Source: a virus
Taxonomy: Duplodnaviria > Caudoviricetes
DNA: 53,180 nucleotides
Strand: one strand, 5' to 3'
IMG/VR virus record: IMGVR_UViG_3300024255_000034
Span: 1 to 53,180 of that record
Positions 33,247 to 46,395 of this stretch are shown here, piece after piece. The first letter of the stretch is position 1; every line of letters starts with the position of its first letter. A program made the position numbers and the translations under genes. Under the pieces are notes generated by a model. It did not search any database and had not been told where the DNA came from. It saw only the letters and a list, made by a program, of their open reading frames with translations.

Positions 33247-34485
33247 ATGTCTGATGAAATTTATGTAAATATAGGAACTTCGTTCCAACAACCCTACCAA
33301 GGACAAGGACTTGCACAAGGTCGTACACCTGTTATAGCACAATATATTGCAAGAAAACCTGCAAATGCACAAACCCCTTTTACATATCAAAATAGACAAC
33401 CTGCAAGTGCAAGACAGCCTTCATCTGCTCAAACACCTTATATTGCAAATAGACAAACCCCTTCCATAGTTCAGGCAACTGCAAATTATCCATATATTGC
33501 ATCTGCACAACAGTCATATCCTTATATTGCAAATGCACAAACTACTACTCAAAATACAGGAAGAACACCTGTAATATATCAAGCAACAGGAAGAACACCA
33601 TTCACATATGCAAGACAAGGACAAACACCATATAGTGCAACTGGAAGATTACCTTCTACATATGAAACACAAGGTCAAACACCTTACAGTTTTCAACAGA
33701 GTTATCAACAAACATATGAAACACAAGGAACACAACCTTATACATTTAATGATACTGGACGACAACCTACGATATATCAAGCACAAGGAACACAACCATA
33801 TAGTTATCAACAGAATTATCAGACCCCAAGTATATACACTGCACAAGTAAGTACCAATAGTCAAGCAACATATCAACACCCGACTACATATCAACATCAG
33901 GCGCAGATAACTTATAGACACCCTACTAGTTCTCAGAGTGTATTTCAGACTCCAGTAATAGCACAACAACCTTATCAACATCCTTATACAGCTCAAACTC
34001 CTGCAAGTAAAGTTGGAAGACAACCTACAACATACACTTATCCCGACCCTGCAATTTGGGGCCCGTATCCAGTAACAGGTGGTTTATTATCTAGTTATGC
34101 TTACTATTATGAAGGATTTAGGTCTACAAACCCAGTTGCGCCAACACAATATGGTGATGGTTTTGGTTCAAGTCCTTGGCCTAATCTGCCAAGTGTTTAC
34201 ACACAAAAACAATATTGGTTGAATAGACCTACTAATTCTACTTTATCAGGAACACTAAATGTTGGAAACTTTTCACCAACAATAACACTTGGTAGTCAAT
34301 TTAATTATCTTCAAATTATTAAAAATGGAACCACTACAAATATACCTTATGCAACCTTTACACCAAATGGTGGGCCTATGGCACCACCATCTTATATGTG
34401 GAGTGGAAGTATGCCTATTATCACACAACAATTTCCAACTCATATAATTTTTAACGGTAATAGCGTCACATTAGCATTATTTTAA
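33247..34485 (+). CDS. Repeat fibre protein A (Pro/Tyr/Gln repeats plus 153 aa head domain)
   Basis: 15 aa N-terminus, 244 aa of repeats, C-terminal domain shared with 42180. Confidence 0.8.
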   Translation: MSDEIYVNIGTSFQQPYQGQGLAQGRTPVIAQYIARKPANAQTPFTYQNRQPASARQPSSAQTPYIANRQTPSIVQATANYPYIASAQQSYPYIANAQTTTQNTGRTPVIYQATGRTPFTYARQGQTPYSATGRLPSTYETQGQTPYSFQQSYQQTYETQGTQPYTFNDTGRQPTIYQAQGTQPYSYQQNYQTPSIYTAQVSTNSQATYQHPTTYQHQAQITYRHPTSSQSVFQTPVIAQQPYQHPYTAQTPASKVGRQPTTYTYPDPAIWGPYPVTGGLLSSYAYYYEGFRSTNPVAPTQYGDGFGSSPWPNLPSVYTQKQYWLNRPTNSTLSGTLNVGNFSPTITLGSQFNYLQIIKNGTTTNIPYATFTPNGGPMAPPSYMWSGSMPIITQQFPTHIIFNGNSVTLALF

Positions 34486-34490
34486 TGGAG
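34031..34490 (+). repeat. Direct repeat copy 1 (head domain); copy 2 at 43141-43600
   Basis: Hand alignment: 36 mismatches in 460 nt, no gaps. Confidence 0.95.
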
Positions 34491-34498
34491 GATAAGAA

Positions 34499-35407
34499 AT
34501 GGCAATAGGAAATACTCAACAACCGTATACTTTTCAATATCAGACTCCATATACGTTGCAGGTAACATCTCAACAACCTTATAGTTTTCAACAACCTACA
34601 AGACAACCAGTAAATGTTCAGAATATAAGACAACAGCCATATTCTTTTACTGCAAATAGACAAAACACTGCACAACAACCTGCAATTATTCAAGTATCAT
34701 ATCAAGCGAATAAACAAACAAGTGGAACAAGACCTATTGCAACAGCAACAAGAACTTATCCTTATATTGCAAATAAACAGAATCCATTTCCATTTATTAA
34801 TCAAGGTCAGGTAGCATATCCATTTATAGCAAGAAGACCTGCAACTACACCAGTTGCACAAGCACAAGCAAATTATCCATATATTGCAAATGCACAAACA
34901 CCGTATCCGTATATTGCACAAGCACCGTATCCTTACATTGCAAATGCACAACAACCATATCCATATGAGGCAAATGCACAACAACCATACCCGTACATAT
35001 CTCAAACTCCGAGTACATATGCAAGACAGGGTAGGACACCATTTACATATAACCGTCAGGCATCATACAGTTTTGAAACACCTGCAAGAACTCCAAGTAC
35101 ATATGTGAATCAACAACCTAGTATTTACCAACACCCTGTAATCTATAGAAATCCGTATATTGCTAATGCAAGACAACCTTCAACATATCAACATGCATAT
35201 CAATCATCTTATAGTTTACAACAAAATTATACTTTCCAACAACCATACACAACAACTAGAACAGTCGGCCCGATTGCAAAAGTGAAAGGTGTGTACAGAA
35301 ATAATGCTGGAACTGTAGAGAAGGTTGACGAGATTTATGTCAATGATAGTGGAACTTTGGAGAAAATACACCAATCAGTTCCAACTGCTCAATTCAATAA
35401 GGGTTAA
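34499..35407 (+). CDS. Repeat fibre protein B (mirror partner of A)
   Basis: MAIGNTQQP start, 240 aa of repeats, C-terminal GVYRNNAG and EIYVNDSG motifs. Confidence 0.8.
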   Translation: MAIGNTQQPYTFQYQTPYTLQVTSQQPYSFQQPTRQPVNVQNIRQQPYSFTANRQNTAQQPAIIQVSYQANKQTSGTRPIATATRTYPYIANKQNPFPFINQGQVAYPFIARRPATTPVAQAQANYPYIANAQTPYPYIAQAPYPYIANAQQPYPYEANAQQPYPYISQTPSTYARQGRTPFTYNRQASYSFETPARTPSTYVNQQPSIYQHPVIYRNPYIANARQPSTYQHAYQSSYSLQQNYTFQQPYTTTRTVGPIAKVKGVYRNNAGTVEKVDEIYVNDSGTLEKIHQSVPTAQFNKG

Positions 35408-42179: not shown

Positions 42180-43595
42180 ATGGCAACAGGGTCACAAAAG
42201 GTAAAAACCCCTTCGGGTTGGAATTCAACTCAGGGTGGTTGGGTAAAAACAGGTTCTACAACATGGAAAGCTGTTGACCAAATATATGTAAAAACACCTA
42301 CAGGGTGGAATGCTGCTTCAGGACAACAATCTGTTCAACAACCATACCCATACATTGCAAATAGTCAGACTCCATATATTGCTAATAGACAAAATCCTTA
42401 TCCGTATATCGCAAATGCACAGACCCCATATATCGCTAATGCACAAAATCCTTATCCGTATATTGCTAATGCACAAAGTCCTTATATTGCTGATGCTCAA
42501 CAACCATATCCGTATATAGCAAACAGTCAGACTCCATATATTGCTAATGCTAGACAACCTAGTACATATCAACATAGGTCGCCGTTTACATATCAAAATC
42601 CTTCAAATAAACAGTCACCTTATATTGCATCTGCACAACAGGCATATCCTTATATTGCATCTGCACAAGAACCTAATATTAGGTCAGCACAACAACCATA
42701 TCCGTATATTGCTAATGCTAGACAACCTAATACGTATAACCATAGGTCTCCATTTACATACAGAAACCCTGTAAATGGTCAAACACCTTATATTGCGAAT
42801 GCTAGAAGTCCAAGAGGATACAGAAATCCTGTAAATGGTCAAACACCTTATATTGCAAATGCTAGAAGTCCAAGAGGATACAGAAATCCTGTAAATGCAC
42901 AACAACCTAACATAAGGAATAGTCAAGCACCATTTACGTATAACGCTAGATATCCTGCAAATGCTCAGAGTCCTAGTAATAAACAAAGTCCTTTCACTTA
43001 TAACGCTAGATACCCTGCAAATGCTCAGTCACCTAGTAGTAGACAGAGTCCATTTACATACAATGCTAGATACCCTGCGAATGCTCAGAGTCCTAGTAGT
43101 AGTCAGAGTCCATTTACATATAGTTTCAGAAGTCCGACCACATATACTTATCCCGACCCTGCAGTTTGGGGCCCGTATCCAGTAACAGGTGGTTTATTAT
43201 CTAGTTATGCTTACTATTATGACGGATTTAGAAGTGCAAATCCAGTTGCGCCAACACAATATGGTGGTAGTTTTGGTTCAAGTCCTTGGCCTAATCTGCC
43301 AAGTCCTTACACACAAAAACAATATTGGTTGAATAGACCTAGTAGTTCTGTGTTATCAGGAACACTAAATCTTGGAAACTTTGCGCCAGGAATAACACTT
43401 GGTAGTCAATTTAGTTATCTTCAAATTATTAAAAGTGGTGTGACTACAAATATACCTTATGCAACCTTTACACCAAATGGTGGGCCTATGGCACCACCAT
43501 CTACTATGTGGAGTGGAAGTATGCCTATTGTCACATCGCAATTTCCAACTCATATAATTTTTAACGGTCAGAGCGTCACATTAGCATTATTTTAA
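42180..43595 (+). CDS. Repeat fibre protein C (Pro/Tyr/Gln repeats plus 153 aa head domain)
   Basis: 54 aa N-terminus with three VKT...W motifs, 264 aa in 35 units, head domain shared with 33247. Confidence 0.85.
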   Translation: MATGSQKVKTPSGWNSTQGGWVKTGSTTWKAVDQIYVKTPTGWNAASGQQSVQQPYPYIANSQTPYIANRQNPYPYIANAQTPYIANAQNPYPYIANAQSPYIADAQQPYPYIANSQTPYIANARQPSTYQHRSPFTYQNPSNKQSPYIASAQQAYPYIASAQEPNIRSAQQPYPYIANARQPNTYNHRSPFTYRNPVNGQTPYIANARSPRGYRNPVNGQTPYIANARSPRGYRNPVNAQQPNIRNSQAPFTYNARYPANAQSPSNKQSPFTYNARYPANAQSPSSRQSPFTYNARYPANAQSPSSSQSPFTYSFRSPTTYTYPDPAVWGPYPVTGGLLSSYAYYYDGFRSANPVAPTQYGGSFGSSPWPNLPSPYTQKQYWLNRPSSSVLSGTLNLGNFAPGITLGSQFSYLQIIKSGVTTNIPYATFTPNGGPMAPPSTMWSGSMPIVTSQFPTHIIFNGQSVTLALF

Positions 43596-43600
43596 TGGAG
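43141..43600 (+). repeat. Direct repeat copy 2 (head domain)
   Basis: About 92% identical to 34031-34490. Confidence 0.95.
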
Positions 43601-43608
43601 AATAATAA

Positions 43609-43896
43609 ATGTCAATAATAACACAAACAATAGATGGACAAGATTTTTATGTAAGAAGTCCACTTCCAACAGTCACATGTAATGGTGTGGATTATAGTGT
43701 ATCATGTACATTCCCACTTACGAATTACACTGTAGGTGGAAGTGTCGATACTGCAAATGCAATAGAACATTTTGAACTGTTGGAAACAGCAAGAATTAAT
43801 GAAGCAATAGTAGTTTCATACGGACTACCAGTAATAGAAGATGGCGTAGAAGTTTGGACTATAACAGACCAATACCCATACTTAACAGCGGTATAA
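43609..43896 (+). CDS. Hypothetical protein between C and D
   Basis: 95 aa ORF with GGAG SD. Confidence 0.7.
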   Translation: MSIITQTIDGQDFYVRSPLPTVTCNGVDYSVSCTFPLTNYTVGGSVDTANAIEHFELLETARINEAIVVSYGLPVIEDGVEVWTITDQYPYLTAV

Positions 43897-43911
43897 TAGG
43901 AAAATAAACAA

Positions 43912-44790
43912 ATGGCAATAGGAAATACCCAACAACCAAATATAGGAAATGCTAGACAACCTAATATTTATAGGAATCCCTTTACCTATAGGGTTCCGTA
44001 TATTGCCAATGCAAGACAACCTGTAATCTATAGGAATCCTTTTACATATAGGGTACCTTATATTGCTAATGCTAGACAACCTGTAATCTATAGGAATCCT
44101 TTTACATATAGAGTTCCGTATATTGCTAATGCTAGACAACCTAGTACGTATAACCATAGGTCTCCATTTACATATAGAAACCCTGTTGGATATCAGTTAC
44201 CGTTTACTTATAATAATAGACAACCATTTACATACAGAAATCCTGTTGGATATCAGTTACCGTTTACTTATAATAATAGACAACCATTTACATATAGAAA
44301 CCCTGTATCGGCACAAGAACCTAATATACGTAATAGTCAAACACCATTCACGTATGCAAGACAAGGTCAAACACCTTTCACATATCAACATAGAAGTCCG
44401 TTTACATATGCAAGACAGGGTAGAACACCATTTACATATCAAAATAGACAACCTGTAATTTATAGAAATCCTGTAAATGCACAAGAACCTAATATACGTA
44501 ACAGACAAACACCTTTCACATATCAGAACAGACAGCCTGGAACTTATCAGAGAACTGGTCAAACTCCATTCACTTATCAGAATAGACAACCTGTAACATA
44601 TGCAAGACAAGGTCAAACACCTACTACATATCAAAACAGACAACCTAGTACATATGCTAGACAAGGTCAGACACCTACTACATATCAAAACAGACAACCT
44701 GGCACATATGCTAGACAAGGTAGAACACCTGTTATCCGTTGGGACGGTGCATTACAACAAAACTGGCCAGGAACACCTATATCCTCTTAA
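43912..44790 (+). CDS. Repeat fibre protein D (mirror partner of C)
   Basis: MAIGNTQQP start, 264 aa in 35 units, 20 aa tail. Confidence 0.85.
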   Translation: MAIGNTQQPNIGNARQPNIYRNPFTYRVPYIANARQPVIYRNPFTYRVPYIANARQPVIYRNPFTYRVPYIANARQPSTYNHRSPFTYRNPVGYQLPFTYNNRQPFTYRNPVGYQLPFTYNNRQPFTYRNPVSAQEPNIRNSQTPFTYARQGQTPFTYQHRSPFTYARQGRTPFTYQNRQPVIYRNPVNAQEPNIRNRQTPFTYQNRQPGTYQRTGQTPFTYQNRQPVTYARQGQTPTTYQNRQPSTYARQGQTPTTYQNRQPGTYARQGRTPVIRWDGALQQNWPGTPISS

Positions 44791-44823: not shown

Positions 44824-46395
44824 ATGGACAAATTAAAAACTTTAGAGCAAACAAAAGAACTTTTAACATTCCCCGAGTCATTCAAAGATTTAGACCATAG
44901 GTCTAGAAGAGATATAGACCAATGGCATTTAGGTGCAATAAACGACTTATCTAACATAGACGAAGACTCAGAATTTTTTAAGATTTTGGAATACATGTTT
45001 GAAAACATGCCTCCACTTAAATTATGTAAATGGTCTGATTTAGAACAACTTAGAAGAGACGGTAAACTAATTGGTTGGCAAGGTCTCAGATTTCAAGCAA
45101 ACTCATATCATAGATTCTTACCCGAAATTTATACATCAGGTTCCATTAATGAACATGGCGCTCCTTCTACAAAATTTGCAGTATCAGAACCTATAAATGA
45201 TAAAGAAGTTTATATTGGAGACTATGCAGGAGAAGAACTCGAAGAAGGGGATTTTGAAGCAGAAGACTTTCCAATTGCACTAAACTCAATGTATTATCAT
45301 AGTGCAAAAGCACATTGGTTAACTCAAAGTATACAAGAAGAGGGATTGTGGGCACCTATACAGGGTCTTACACAAATGTGTGGAGATAGAATACAATTAA
45401 TGATTCACCCAGGCTCTGTTCGTTCAGGTTGTTTTGAAGAAATGGAAGACCCAACTCATGAATTATTATTATGGGATTCACATGATATTATACCATCAAA
45501 TCCATTAACAGTCAAGCAATGTTTAGAGTACTGGCAAGATAAAGTTTGTAATGGGGTTAGGAAACCAAAGTACAAAGGTCTTTCTGCAATATGGACAATG
45601 GGAACTATAGAGTTCCAAGCAGACTTTAGTAATGTAGATTTTAGAAAGTATGTTTGGGAACATAGTGAAAAGGTCACTAAACTTGCAAAAGGAAAACCTC
45701 TCAATATTTACATTGGGTATGATAGTAGGCACAATGGATTAGAAAATGTATGTAAGGAATCTATACTAAAGTCTATAAAACAATCTATTGGGGGTGGAAG
45801 ACTTGTAAACTATAATAAGTTTATACCCGAAATTAAATTTTTAGATGTGTCTAAGATACCCGAATACAAAAGACCATATGAGAATCAATCCACATGGTTT
45901 ACATACAGTAGATTCTTAATCCCTTACTTAGAAAACTATGAGGGGTTCAGTTTGTTTATAGATGATGATTTCATTTTTAGTAAATCATTACTACCTATGT
46001 TTTACTATTTAAATACAGATGATGCAATTGCATGTATTAAGTATCCTCAAATAAAACATGATGAAACTAAATTTGACGGAGAAGTAAACATAGATTATCC
46101 ATGTAAGTTATGGTCTTCAATGATGTTCTTTAATAATGGACATGAAGACTGTAAAAAGTTAACACCCGAAGTTGTGAATACATGGACTGGAGCTCAATTA
46201 CACCAATTTGAATGGACTGATAAAATTAGTCCTATACCTGAAAAATATATATTTGTTGAAGGGTATGATAACCCTGATGTAAAGTGGGACTATAGCGGAA
46301 TCCATTATACTAGGGGAGGCCCGTGGATAAATGACATGGATTCTAGTCACATAAATAACTTAGAAGATTATAATAAAGTAAAAAATCTATTGTAA
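44824..46395 (+). CDS. Fusion of a ParB/Srx-like domain and a GT-A glycosyltransferase
   Basis: WLTQSIQEEGLWAP...IHPGSVR, then IYIGYDSR, STWFTYSRFLIPYL, FIDDDF, WSSMMFFN and IHYTRGGPW. Confidence 0.75.
   Translation: MDKLKTLEQTKELLTFPESFKDLDHRSRRDIDQWHLGAINDLSNIDEDSEFFKILEYMFENMPPLKLCKWSDLEQLRRDGKLIGWQGLRFQANSYHRFLPEIYTSGSINEHGAPSTKFAVSEPINDKEVYIGDYAGEELEEGDFEAEDFPIALNSMYYHSAKAHWLTQSIQEEGLWAPIQGLTQMCGDRIQLMIHPGSVRSGCFEEMEDPTHELLLWDSHDIIPSNPLTVKQCLEYWQDKVCNGVRKPKYKGLSAIWTMGTIEFQADFSNVDFRKYVWEHSEKVTKLAKGKPLNIYIGYDSRHNGLENVCKESILKSIKQSIGGGRLVNYNKFIPEIKFLDVSKIPEYKRPYENQSTWFTYSRFLIPYLENYEGFSLFIDDDFIFSKSLLPMFYYLNTDDAIACIKYPQIKHDETKFDGEVNIDYPCKLWSSMMFFNNGHEDCKKLTPEVVNTWTGAQLHQFEWTDKISPIPEKYIFVEGYDNPDVKWDYSGIHYTRGGPWINDMDSSHINNLEDYNKVKNLL

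Follow-up and report, generated by a model that had tools for sequence, protein, structure and literature searches.

Mirror-ordered partner repeats in adjacent fibre-like genes of an uncultured marine T4-like phage

The genes described here lie in the IMG/VR virus record IMGVR_UViG_3300024255_000034 (Duplodnaviria; Caudoviricetes), of which positions 1 to 53,180 were analysed; this whole stretch of 53,180 nucleotides is called the window. Its source is an uncultured marine T4-like (pelagimyophage-like) myophage, whose baseplate and fibre region it carries. Four open reading frames (ORFs) on the + strand, designated A, B, C and D, consist largely of proline-started units of 6, 8 or 10 residues. 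Elsewhere in the window no ORF consists mainly of these units, and three other ORFs contain 5-10 regular-expression matches each. An earlier note on this DNA had claimed that A read forwards matches B read backwards, so that the A/B pair obeys, in more degenerate form and with a different unit order, the same mirror rule as the C/D pair. In the present study we examine the A/B mirror, its generality among related viral loci and what it may mean for the proteins encoded.

Gene A (33247..34485, + strand, 412 residues) begins with a 15-residue N-terminal strand that contains EIYVN, continues with repeats at residues 16-259 and ends in a C-terminal globular domain, the presumed distal tip (residues 260-412; 34024..34482, + strand), which shares 87% identity with its counterpart in C. 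Every proline-proline spacing in A is even (25/25). Gene B (34499..35407, + strand, 302 residues) starts 13 nt past the stop of A, so that the two are adjacent on the same strand, and is composed of the N-terminus MAIGNTQQ, repeats at residues 9-248 and a beta-rich C-terminal domain at residues 249-302. Gene C (42180..43595, + strand, 471 residues) is a paralogue of A; it has an N-terminal Trp-rich domain of its own and 35 repeat units, and it ends in the same tip domain. Its partner, gene D (43912..44790, + strand, 292 residues), has the N-terminus of B. A C-terminal domain of ~150 residues is common to A and C, and the N-terminus MAIGNTQQ is common to B and D.

Database searches were largely silent on these proteins. 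A matches no family of Pfam or PHROG; B likewise has no Pfam family, and its sole PHROG match is to PHROG 13729 (unknown function) at residues 259-293, so that neither protein falls into a PHROG fibre family. Profiles of B and of the tip domain found no PDB chain at E up to 1, Pfam found no Hint domain in A or B (certain C-like relatives possess one), and the ESM Atlas returned viral hypothetical clusters only, all with scores <0.9. Weak Pfam matches of C and D to Cementoin and SplA were rejected as compositional and below the cut-off.

All 12 of the unit pairs quoted in the earlier note were found in the A/B translations where it had placed them, and its span, 33292-35242, runs from A residue 16 to B residue 248 (A 16-259, 244 residues; B 9-248, 240 residues). 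Counted by reading the strings and not by script, 10 of the 12 fall into canonical classes, namely PxNAQx opposite PxxYxx (6 residues), PYIANAxQ opposite PxTYxxxQ (8 residues) and PYPYIANAQx opposite PxTYARQGxT (10 residues). When A is set against reversed B without gaps, 12 prolines coincide (25 prolines in the A repeats and 31 in those of B), and the best parallel reading gives 9. Shuffling the unit order of B gives a mean of 8.6±1.4 coincidences, and at least 12 are reached in a fraction 0.028 of 5000 shuffles when PY is merged with the next unit, or 0.022 of 5000 when every proline-delimited piece of B is shuffled separately.

It is the residue pattern, and not the proline register, that is decisive for the A/B mirror. 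With a pairing matrix taken from the window's own C/D alignment, A/B scored 43.3 bits over 99 ungapped residues against a null of 21.6±2.6 (0/1000), and the same matrix stripped of all proline terms still gave 38.5 bits against 20.1±2.7 (0/1000). A second matrix was built from 61 pairs of other loci comprising 712 distinct unit pairs; all 23 A/B-type pairs were excluded from it, as were 3 further pairs in which less than 60% of the prolines matched. Under this second matrix, A 37-143 (33355..33675, + strand) paired with reversed B 128-234 (34880..35200, + strand) at 55.5 bits over 107 residues without a gap, where the null was 20.7±2.6 (0/300 unit shuffles) and the parallel reading scored 13.4. 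A matrix that holds no A/B-type pair therefore picks the noted alignment ~13 standard deviations above shuffled unit orders, in agreement with the claim that A/B obeys the C/D code. The comparison of the reversed alignment with shuffled unit orders, which had been proposed as a check, has thus been run, and the shuffles fall short (0/300; 0/1000). The unit order also differs between the two pairs as described: the 6/6/8 module is base-side in A/B and tip-side in C/D, and the 10-residue Tyr units are on A and on D, not on C.

The two halves of the repeat region behave differently. The statement that A/B replicates the C/D rule held for the proximal ~107 residues but not for the distal half, where the code is absent over about half of the repeat region, and gapped alignment did not extend the coded match past 107 residues. 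The degenerate Q/T/Y-rich distal repeats of A (residues 144-259; 33676..34023, + strand) mirror those of B (residues 9-127; 34523..34879, + strand) in approximate proline register only, and the distal repeats of B contain two 9-residue proline-proline spacings, the only odd ones there. A gapped, proline-only alignment of A 144-262 with B 1-127 gave 12 coincidences with three gaps (1, 1 and 4 residues) and a score of 21.0, compared with 11.7±2.4 for shuffled partners (2/400 reach it) and 15.0 for the parallel reading. Together the results confirm the A/B observation, with the proximal ~107 residues strong in both register and code and the distal ~120 residues in approximate register only.

The code itself is compact. 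The commonest 8-residue unit pair is PYIANAxQ opposite PFTYxxRx and the second is PNIRxxQx opposite PxTYxHRS; the commonest 10-residue pair is PYPYIANxQx opposite PxTYARQGxT and the commonest 6-residue pair is PxNAQx opposite PFTYRx. All four occur with the chains in either orientation. Enrichment is seen for the residue pairs Tyr-Gly/Ala, Ile-Arg, His-Arg, Phe-Gln/Glu and Gln-Thr. Even spacings account for 6345 of the 6850 proline-proline distances (93%), with 6, 8 and 10 dominant, and aromatics occupy 29.6% of even positions compared with 0.3% of odd positions, while small residues occupy 31.7% and 9.3%, respectively. A strict two-residue period with large residues opposite small ones on one face is as expected of paired beta strands, and the repeats would by this pattern adopt beta conformation. 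A collagen-like or polyproline-II shaft was considered and rejected, as a three-residue period is absent and spacings of 6, 8 and 10 dominate; helical repeats are ruled out by the proline content.

The C/D pair is mirrored along nearly all of its length. Its proline register gives 34-35 coincidences, with 36 prolines in the D repeats, against 16.6±1.6 for shuffles (0/5000), and under the pairing matrix the mirror scores 276.9 bits over 267 residues. The cross pairs A/D and C/B score 36.5 bits over 41 residues and 36.0 bits over 34 residues, values reached by 3/300 shuffles in each case, and on proline register both are at null level (shuffle fractions 0.40 and 0.32-0.34). In addition, the residues left to the tip end are 188 vs 26 for A/D and 43 vs 198 for C/B, compared with 119 vs 127 for A/B and 1 vs 6 for C/D. 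The A/D and C/B registers thus cannot bring the chain ends together, whereas A/B and C/D are in register. This fits what the earlier note inferred, namely two putative shafts, A/B and C/D, that would be kept orthogonal by their distinct unit order.

The mirror rule is not confined to the window. Three scans of viral contigs yielded 161 loci, from which 87 distinct adjacent repeat-gene pairs were obtained (59, 36 and 19 clusters at 90, 70 and 50% identity). In 78 of the 87 the antiparallel proline register exceeds that of unit-shuffled partners by z scores of 4.9-12.9 (0/200 each), and in 85 the antiparallel count of coinciding prolines is higher than the parallel count. The remaining nine pairs, seven of which are close A/B relatives, all clear the shuffle test once the code matrix is used, in segments 71-110 residues long (0/200 each). 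The rule is therefore general, with 87/87 distinct adjacent pairs mirrored. In more distant pairs of the A/B type, whose unit orders are different, the mirror extends over most of the chain (L019, z 6.6; L024, z 8.1; L050, z 9.9).

Partner chains also vary together in length. The repeat regions of partners are correlated at r 0.91 over a range of 137-559 residues, and their median difference is 14 residues vs 91 for permuted partners. The difference between partners is ~41-50 residues in one subfamily, with pairs from 366/320 to 585/540 residues, and ~176-192 in another, with pairs from 454/276 to 735/559. Relatives of C and D are 490-494 and 310 residues long, compared with 471 and 292 in the window, and the extra 18 residues are one 10-residue and one 8-residue unit gained by both chains at mirror positions. 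In two of the loci (L002 and L004) the forward and reversed strings of unit lengths agree at 37/37 units. An insertion in one chain is thus compensated at the mirror position in its partner.

B as a query retrieved 231 proteins; among the 120 listed, 16 are named 'hypothetical protein' and none has a descriptive name. Eleven protein clusters unite, in single chains of 458-520 residues, an N-terminus like that of A with a C-terminus like that of B. In nine of these, the N-terminal portion matches the C-terminal portion read backwards under the matrix that holds no A/B-type pair, at 41.7-133.8 bits over 35-135 residues (0/200 each). Judged by their sequences, such single-chain forms are partner fusions with the geometry expected from the mirror, which would be that of a long hairpin.

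Some relatives carry a further element. A poly-Gly-Cys junction was detected by regular expression in 23 of 124 collected proteins, and in 17 it follows a C-like N-terminus and repeats. In proteins P0035 and P0040 the junction opens a Hint/intein-like domain that stands in place of the tip domain; the Pfam family Vint matches P0035 at 29.3 bits vs a cut-off of 27, and P0040 falls below the cut-off. At locus L139 (3995-5778) the gene order is reversed, with a short D-like gene first and a long Hint-bearing gene second, and the mirror holds (25 coinciding prolines, z 11.5). The Hint junction suggests autoproteolytic removal, or possibly ligation, at the distal tip.

The mirror alignment places the ends of the chains together. 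In A/B the 15-residue N-terminus of A and the C-terminal domain of B lie at one end, and the tip domain of A and the N-terminus of B at the other. The arrangement in C/D is the same, except that the end-domain is carried by C. A weak resemblance links the C-terminal domain of B to the N-terminal domain of C (E 0.002 over 18 residues), and the way in which the presumed base-end module is divided between the chains seems to differ from A/B to C/D. A short motif of the type G-x-x-x-x-x-x-T-x-x-x-V-D-x-I-Y-V is common to these two domains (35225-35404 in B and 42180-42344 in C), and the start of A also has EIYVN.

Among 1.84 billion representatives, an exhaustive search with the A tip domain turned up no more than 2 true relatives. 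Tips were compared at the window, L004-L007, L011, L015, L018, L023, L030 and L107. In 5 of 6 genomes, the A and C tips of the same genome (34024-34482 and 43137-43592 in the window) share 87-95% identity, and across genomes the A-tips are 18-79% identical to one another and the C-tips likewise. Tips that are nearly identical within a phage and divergent between phages point to exchange or homogenisation of the two together, as expected of a host-range determinant. For B, the ratio of nonsynonymous to synonymous substitution rates (dN/dS) is 0.02-0.06 in the C-terminal domain, 0.03-0.18 in the coded part (residues 128-234) and 0.29-0.54 in the distal repeats (residues 9-127). B is under purifying selection.

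The four genes sit downstream of the baseplate wedge genes and a gene for a 2217-residue protein, amid fibre-like genes. The gp6-like wedge protein of the window is 42% identical to its homologue in Methylophilales phage Melnitz and 39% identical to the homologues of Pelagibacter phages Mosig and HTVC008M. The 2217-residue protein matches PHROG 358 (unknown function) across most of its length, and from gene order alone, with no confirmation by any tool, we take it to be a VrlC homologue. In pelagimyophages a 'host recognition cluster' is described as located between VrlC and gp14 (PMC7029224). The A-D region corresponds to this cluster, the kind of module in which phage tail fibres are encoded; it is from this gene context that we infer that A/B and C/D are fibres.

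Other features of the region were noted in passing. Directly after D, a gene for 523 residues (44824-46395), whose position next to D is conserved in relatives, has a weak match, below the cut-off, to glycosyltransferase family 8, which agrees with the glycosyltransferases reported within pelagimyophage host recognition clusters (PMC7029224). The intergenic gap between C and D (43596-43911) is 316 nt, vs 13 nt between A and B, and relatives have the same C-D gap. A promoter and terminator scan gave no clear signal in the C-D gap and nothing decisive between A and B. Antisense ORFs run through gene D, both in the window (44257-44718, - strand, 153 residues) and in L002 (2679-3569, - strand, 296 residues); these are probably a by-product of repetitive codon usage that leaves the opposite frame free of stops.

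Based on these results we consider it likely that A and B are two chains of one elongated fibre shaft, belonging to the host-recognition cluster of a marine T4-like phage. What the sequences themselves show is the mirror relation, the shared code and how general it is, together with length changes that are compensated and partners joined in a single chain. In such a shaft A and B would pair physically and be present in the virion. With units of even length (6, 8 or 10), an extended beta strand would keep its aromatic-plus-small face and its polar face throughout. A would run from base to tip and B would run back, as antiparallel beta strands, each unit of A lying against a complementary unit of B of the same length, with Tyr opposite Ala/Gly/Ser, Ile opposite Arg and Gln opposite Thr. 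The N-terminus of A and the C-terminal domain of B would meet at the end taken as virion-proximal, and the variable C-terminal domain of A and the N-terminus of B would meet at the presumed receptor-binding tip. Unit order would set the register and, since it differs from that of C/D, would also set the partner. That three A/B pairs form a six-stranded needle like that of T4 gp37 is a guess.

We give about even odds to a wider proposal, that these repeats constitute a natural polypeptide pairing code. Four complementary unit pairs, usable in either orientation, would by their order on two chains program both register and partner in an antiparallel beta assembly, so that one virion builds two non-crossreacting shafts (A/B and C/D) with the same tip domain. 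The same architecture would then occur in a two-gene form, as a hairpin of one chain and in a version whose tip bears a self-cleaving Hint domain.

Several results weigh against the two-chain shaft. Taken by itself, the proline register gives A/B marginal support, being reached by 0.02-0.03 of shuffles, and two close A/B relatives (L001 and L007) have a proline-register z of only 0.6. In the distal half the code matrix finds nothing (1.1 vs a null of 4.2; 379/400 shuffles reach the score), the odd-length units of distal B would break strict beta register, and the distal repeats evolve faster, as their dN/dS shows. The 87 pairs are mutually related and hence do not represent 87 independent events, and two of the 11 single-chain forms (P0039 and P0051) have no internal mirror (26/200 shuffles reach the score). 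AlphaFold2 gave a mean confidence (predicted local distance difference test, pLDDT) of 29.9 for the single-chain relative P0006 (11 sequences) and 49.5 for the A tip domain, too low to lend structural support. No cultured phage with this family was found in the searches made: megablast and tblastn against 50,697 phage records gave no match to the 14-kb region, to C or to the last 60 residues of B, although the low-complexity filter may hide repeat matches, and Methylophilales phage Melnitz, the closest cultured relative, has no such repeat genes in its fibre region. Complex prediction with A 1-145 and B 125-302 (1:1) gave a score of 0.02 and a mark of 0.32, and counts neither for nor against binding.

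The distal half also bears on an alternative in which A/B is a decaying mirrored copy, with only the proximal ~107 residues paired and the distal halves serving as flexible or disordered linkers of similar length. The lack of code signal there, the contrast in dN/dS between distal (0.29-0.54) and proximal (0.03-0.18) parts and the odd-length units of distal B are all as this would have it. However, the distal proline register is still mirrored (12 coincidences; 2/400 shuffles reach the score), a run of unit lengths 18, 14 and 10 is present in both chains in mirror order, dN/dS remains <1, and in six distinct close A/B-type pairs (L001, L006, L007, L010, L012 and L018) B has exactly the 302 residues that it has in the window; we regard decay as unlikely. 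Permanence of the pairing, in turn, is what separates a shaft of two chains from a role for B as a register-matched assembly chaperone or template for the A shaft that is not kept in the mature fibre. The gene directly downstream of a fibre gene is the usual site of tail-fibre chaperones, B lies 13 nt downstream of the fibre-like gene A, and the mirror evidence shows pairing, not permanence. Nevertheless, the single-chain forms hold both halves in one polypeptide, B matches no chaperone family in Pfam or PHROG, and its best-conserved part is the C-terminal domain (dN/dS 0.02-0.06), whose weak likeness to the N-terminal domain of C suggests a structural end-piece. There is a small chance, in our judgement, that B acts in this way.

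Two further explanations would make the mirror incidental to protein pairing. If it were a by-product of low complexity, with so few unit types that any two such proteins can be aligned, the small vocabulary would be to blame, and the cross pairs A/D and C/B do still score 36 bits over 34-41 residues. Yet shuffling the unit order alone abolishes the signal (0/300, 0/1000), the parallel reading reaches 13 bits and the cross pairs are at null level on proline register, which leaves low complexity extremely improbable as the source. Scarcely any probability attaches to symmetry in the nucleic acid either, be it a DNA segment duplicated in inverted orientation or a long hairpin in the mRNA, with the protein mirror secondary to it. 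A and B both lie on the + strand; 33247-35407 contains a single inverted repeat, of 17 nt at 88%, and the longest in 42180-44790 is of 32 nt at 72%. No supporting evidence was found, and there are no long complementary arms between A and B.

The nearest known object to the proposed two-chain shaft is the T4 gp37 needle, which likewise belongs to the tail-fibre module of a T4-like phage. The needle is a thin shaft of antiparallel beta strands whose far end binds the receptor. In gp37 every chain goes to the tip and returns, a path that the single-chain relatives described here would also take if the mirror is a guide. The needle is built of six antiparallel strands from three chains (PMC9659904) and is described as binding iron through histidines (PMC6957217). 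In contrast, A and B show no sequence relation to gp37 in Pfam, PHROG and PDB searches, and their translations have scattered histidines with no His-x-His series; across the family His makes up 2.7% of even positions. Furthermore, gp37 is a single gene product, whereas at 87 loci the out and return strands are on two gene products, in proline-punctuated units paired by type.

Heterodimeric coiled-coil zippers use a positional repeat code, and different codes give pairs that do not cross-react. The likeness lies in two chains matched by a repeated positional code; unlike zippers, the repeats described here have a period of 2 and not 7, are proline-rich (and so form no helices), would pair antiparallel and come in several unit lengths. 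Triple beta-spiral and collagen-like viral fibre shafts are parallel homotrimers with ~15- or 3-residue repeats and a terminal binding domain. They are similarly repetitive and thin with a terminal binding domain, but here the spacings are 6, 8 and 10 (93% even) and two different chains stand in mirror order. Literature searches returned no account of mirror-coded partner repeats, and four peptide motifs of the family matched no paper, though supplementary files could list such genes. We rate mirror-coded partner repeats as new in kind and regard A/B as a real second instance, half of it degenerate.

If the pairing is physical, these genes would represent a new way to build a long protein rod, with two chains in exact antiparallel register. 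Such a rod would need few complementary unit types, and a change of length in one chain would be compensated in the other. If true, this would supply a partner rule for beta structure that can be read from sequence, like the heptad rules for coiled coils, which would be of use in designing proteins. Part of the host-recognition cluster that lacks annotation in abundant marine myophages would be accounted for as well. Finally, the presence of nearly the same tip on both shafts, and the wide variation of tips between phages, point to the tip as the host-range determinant.

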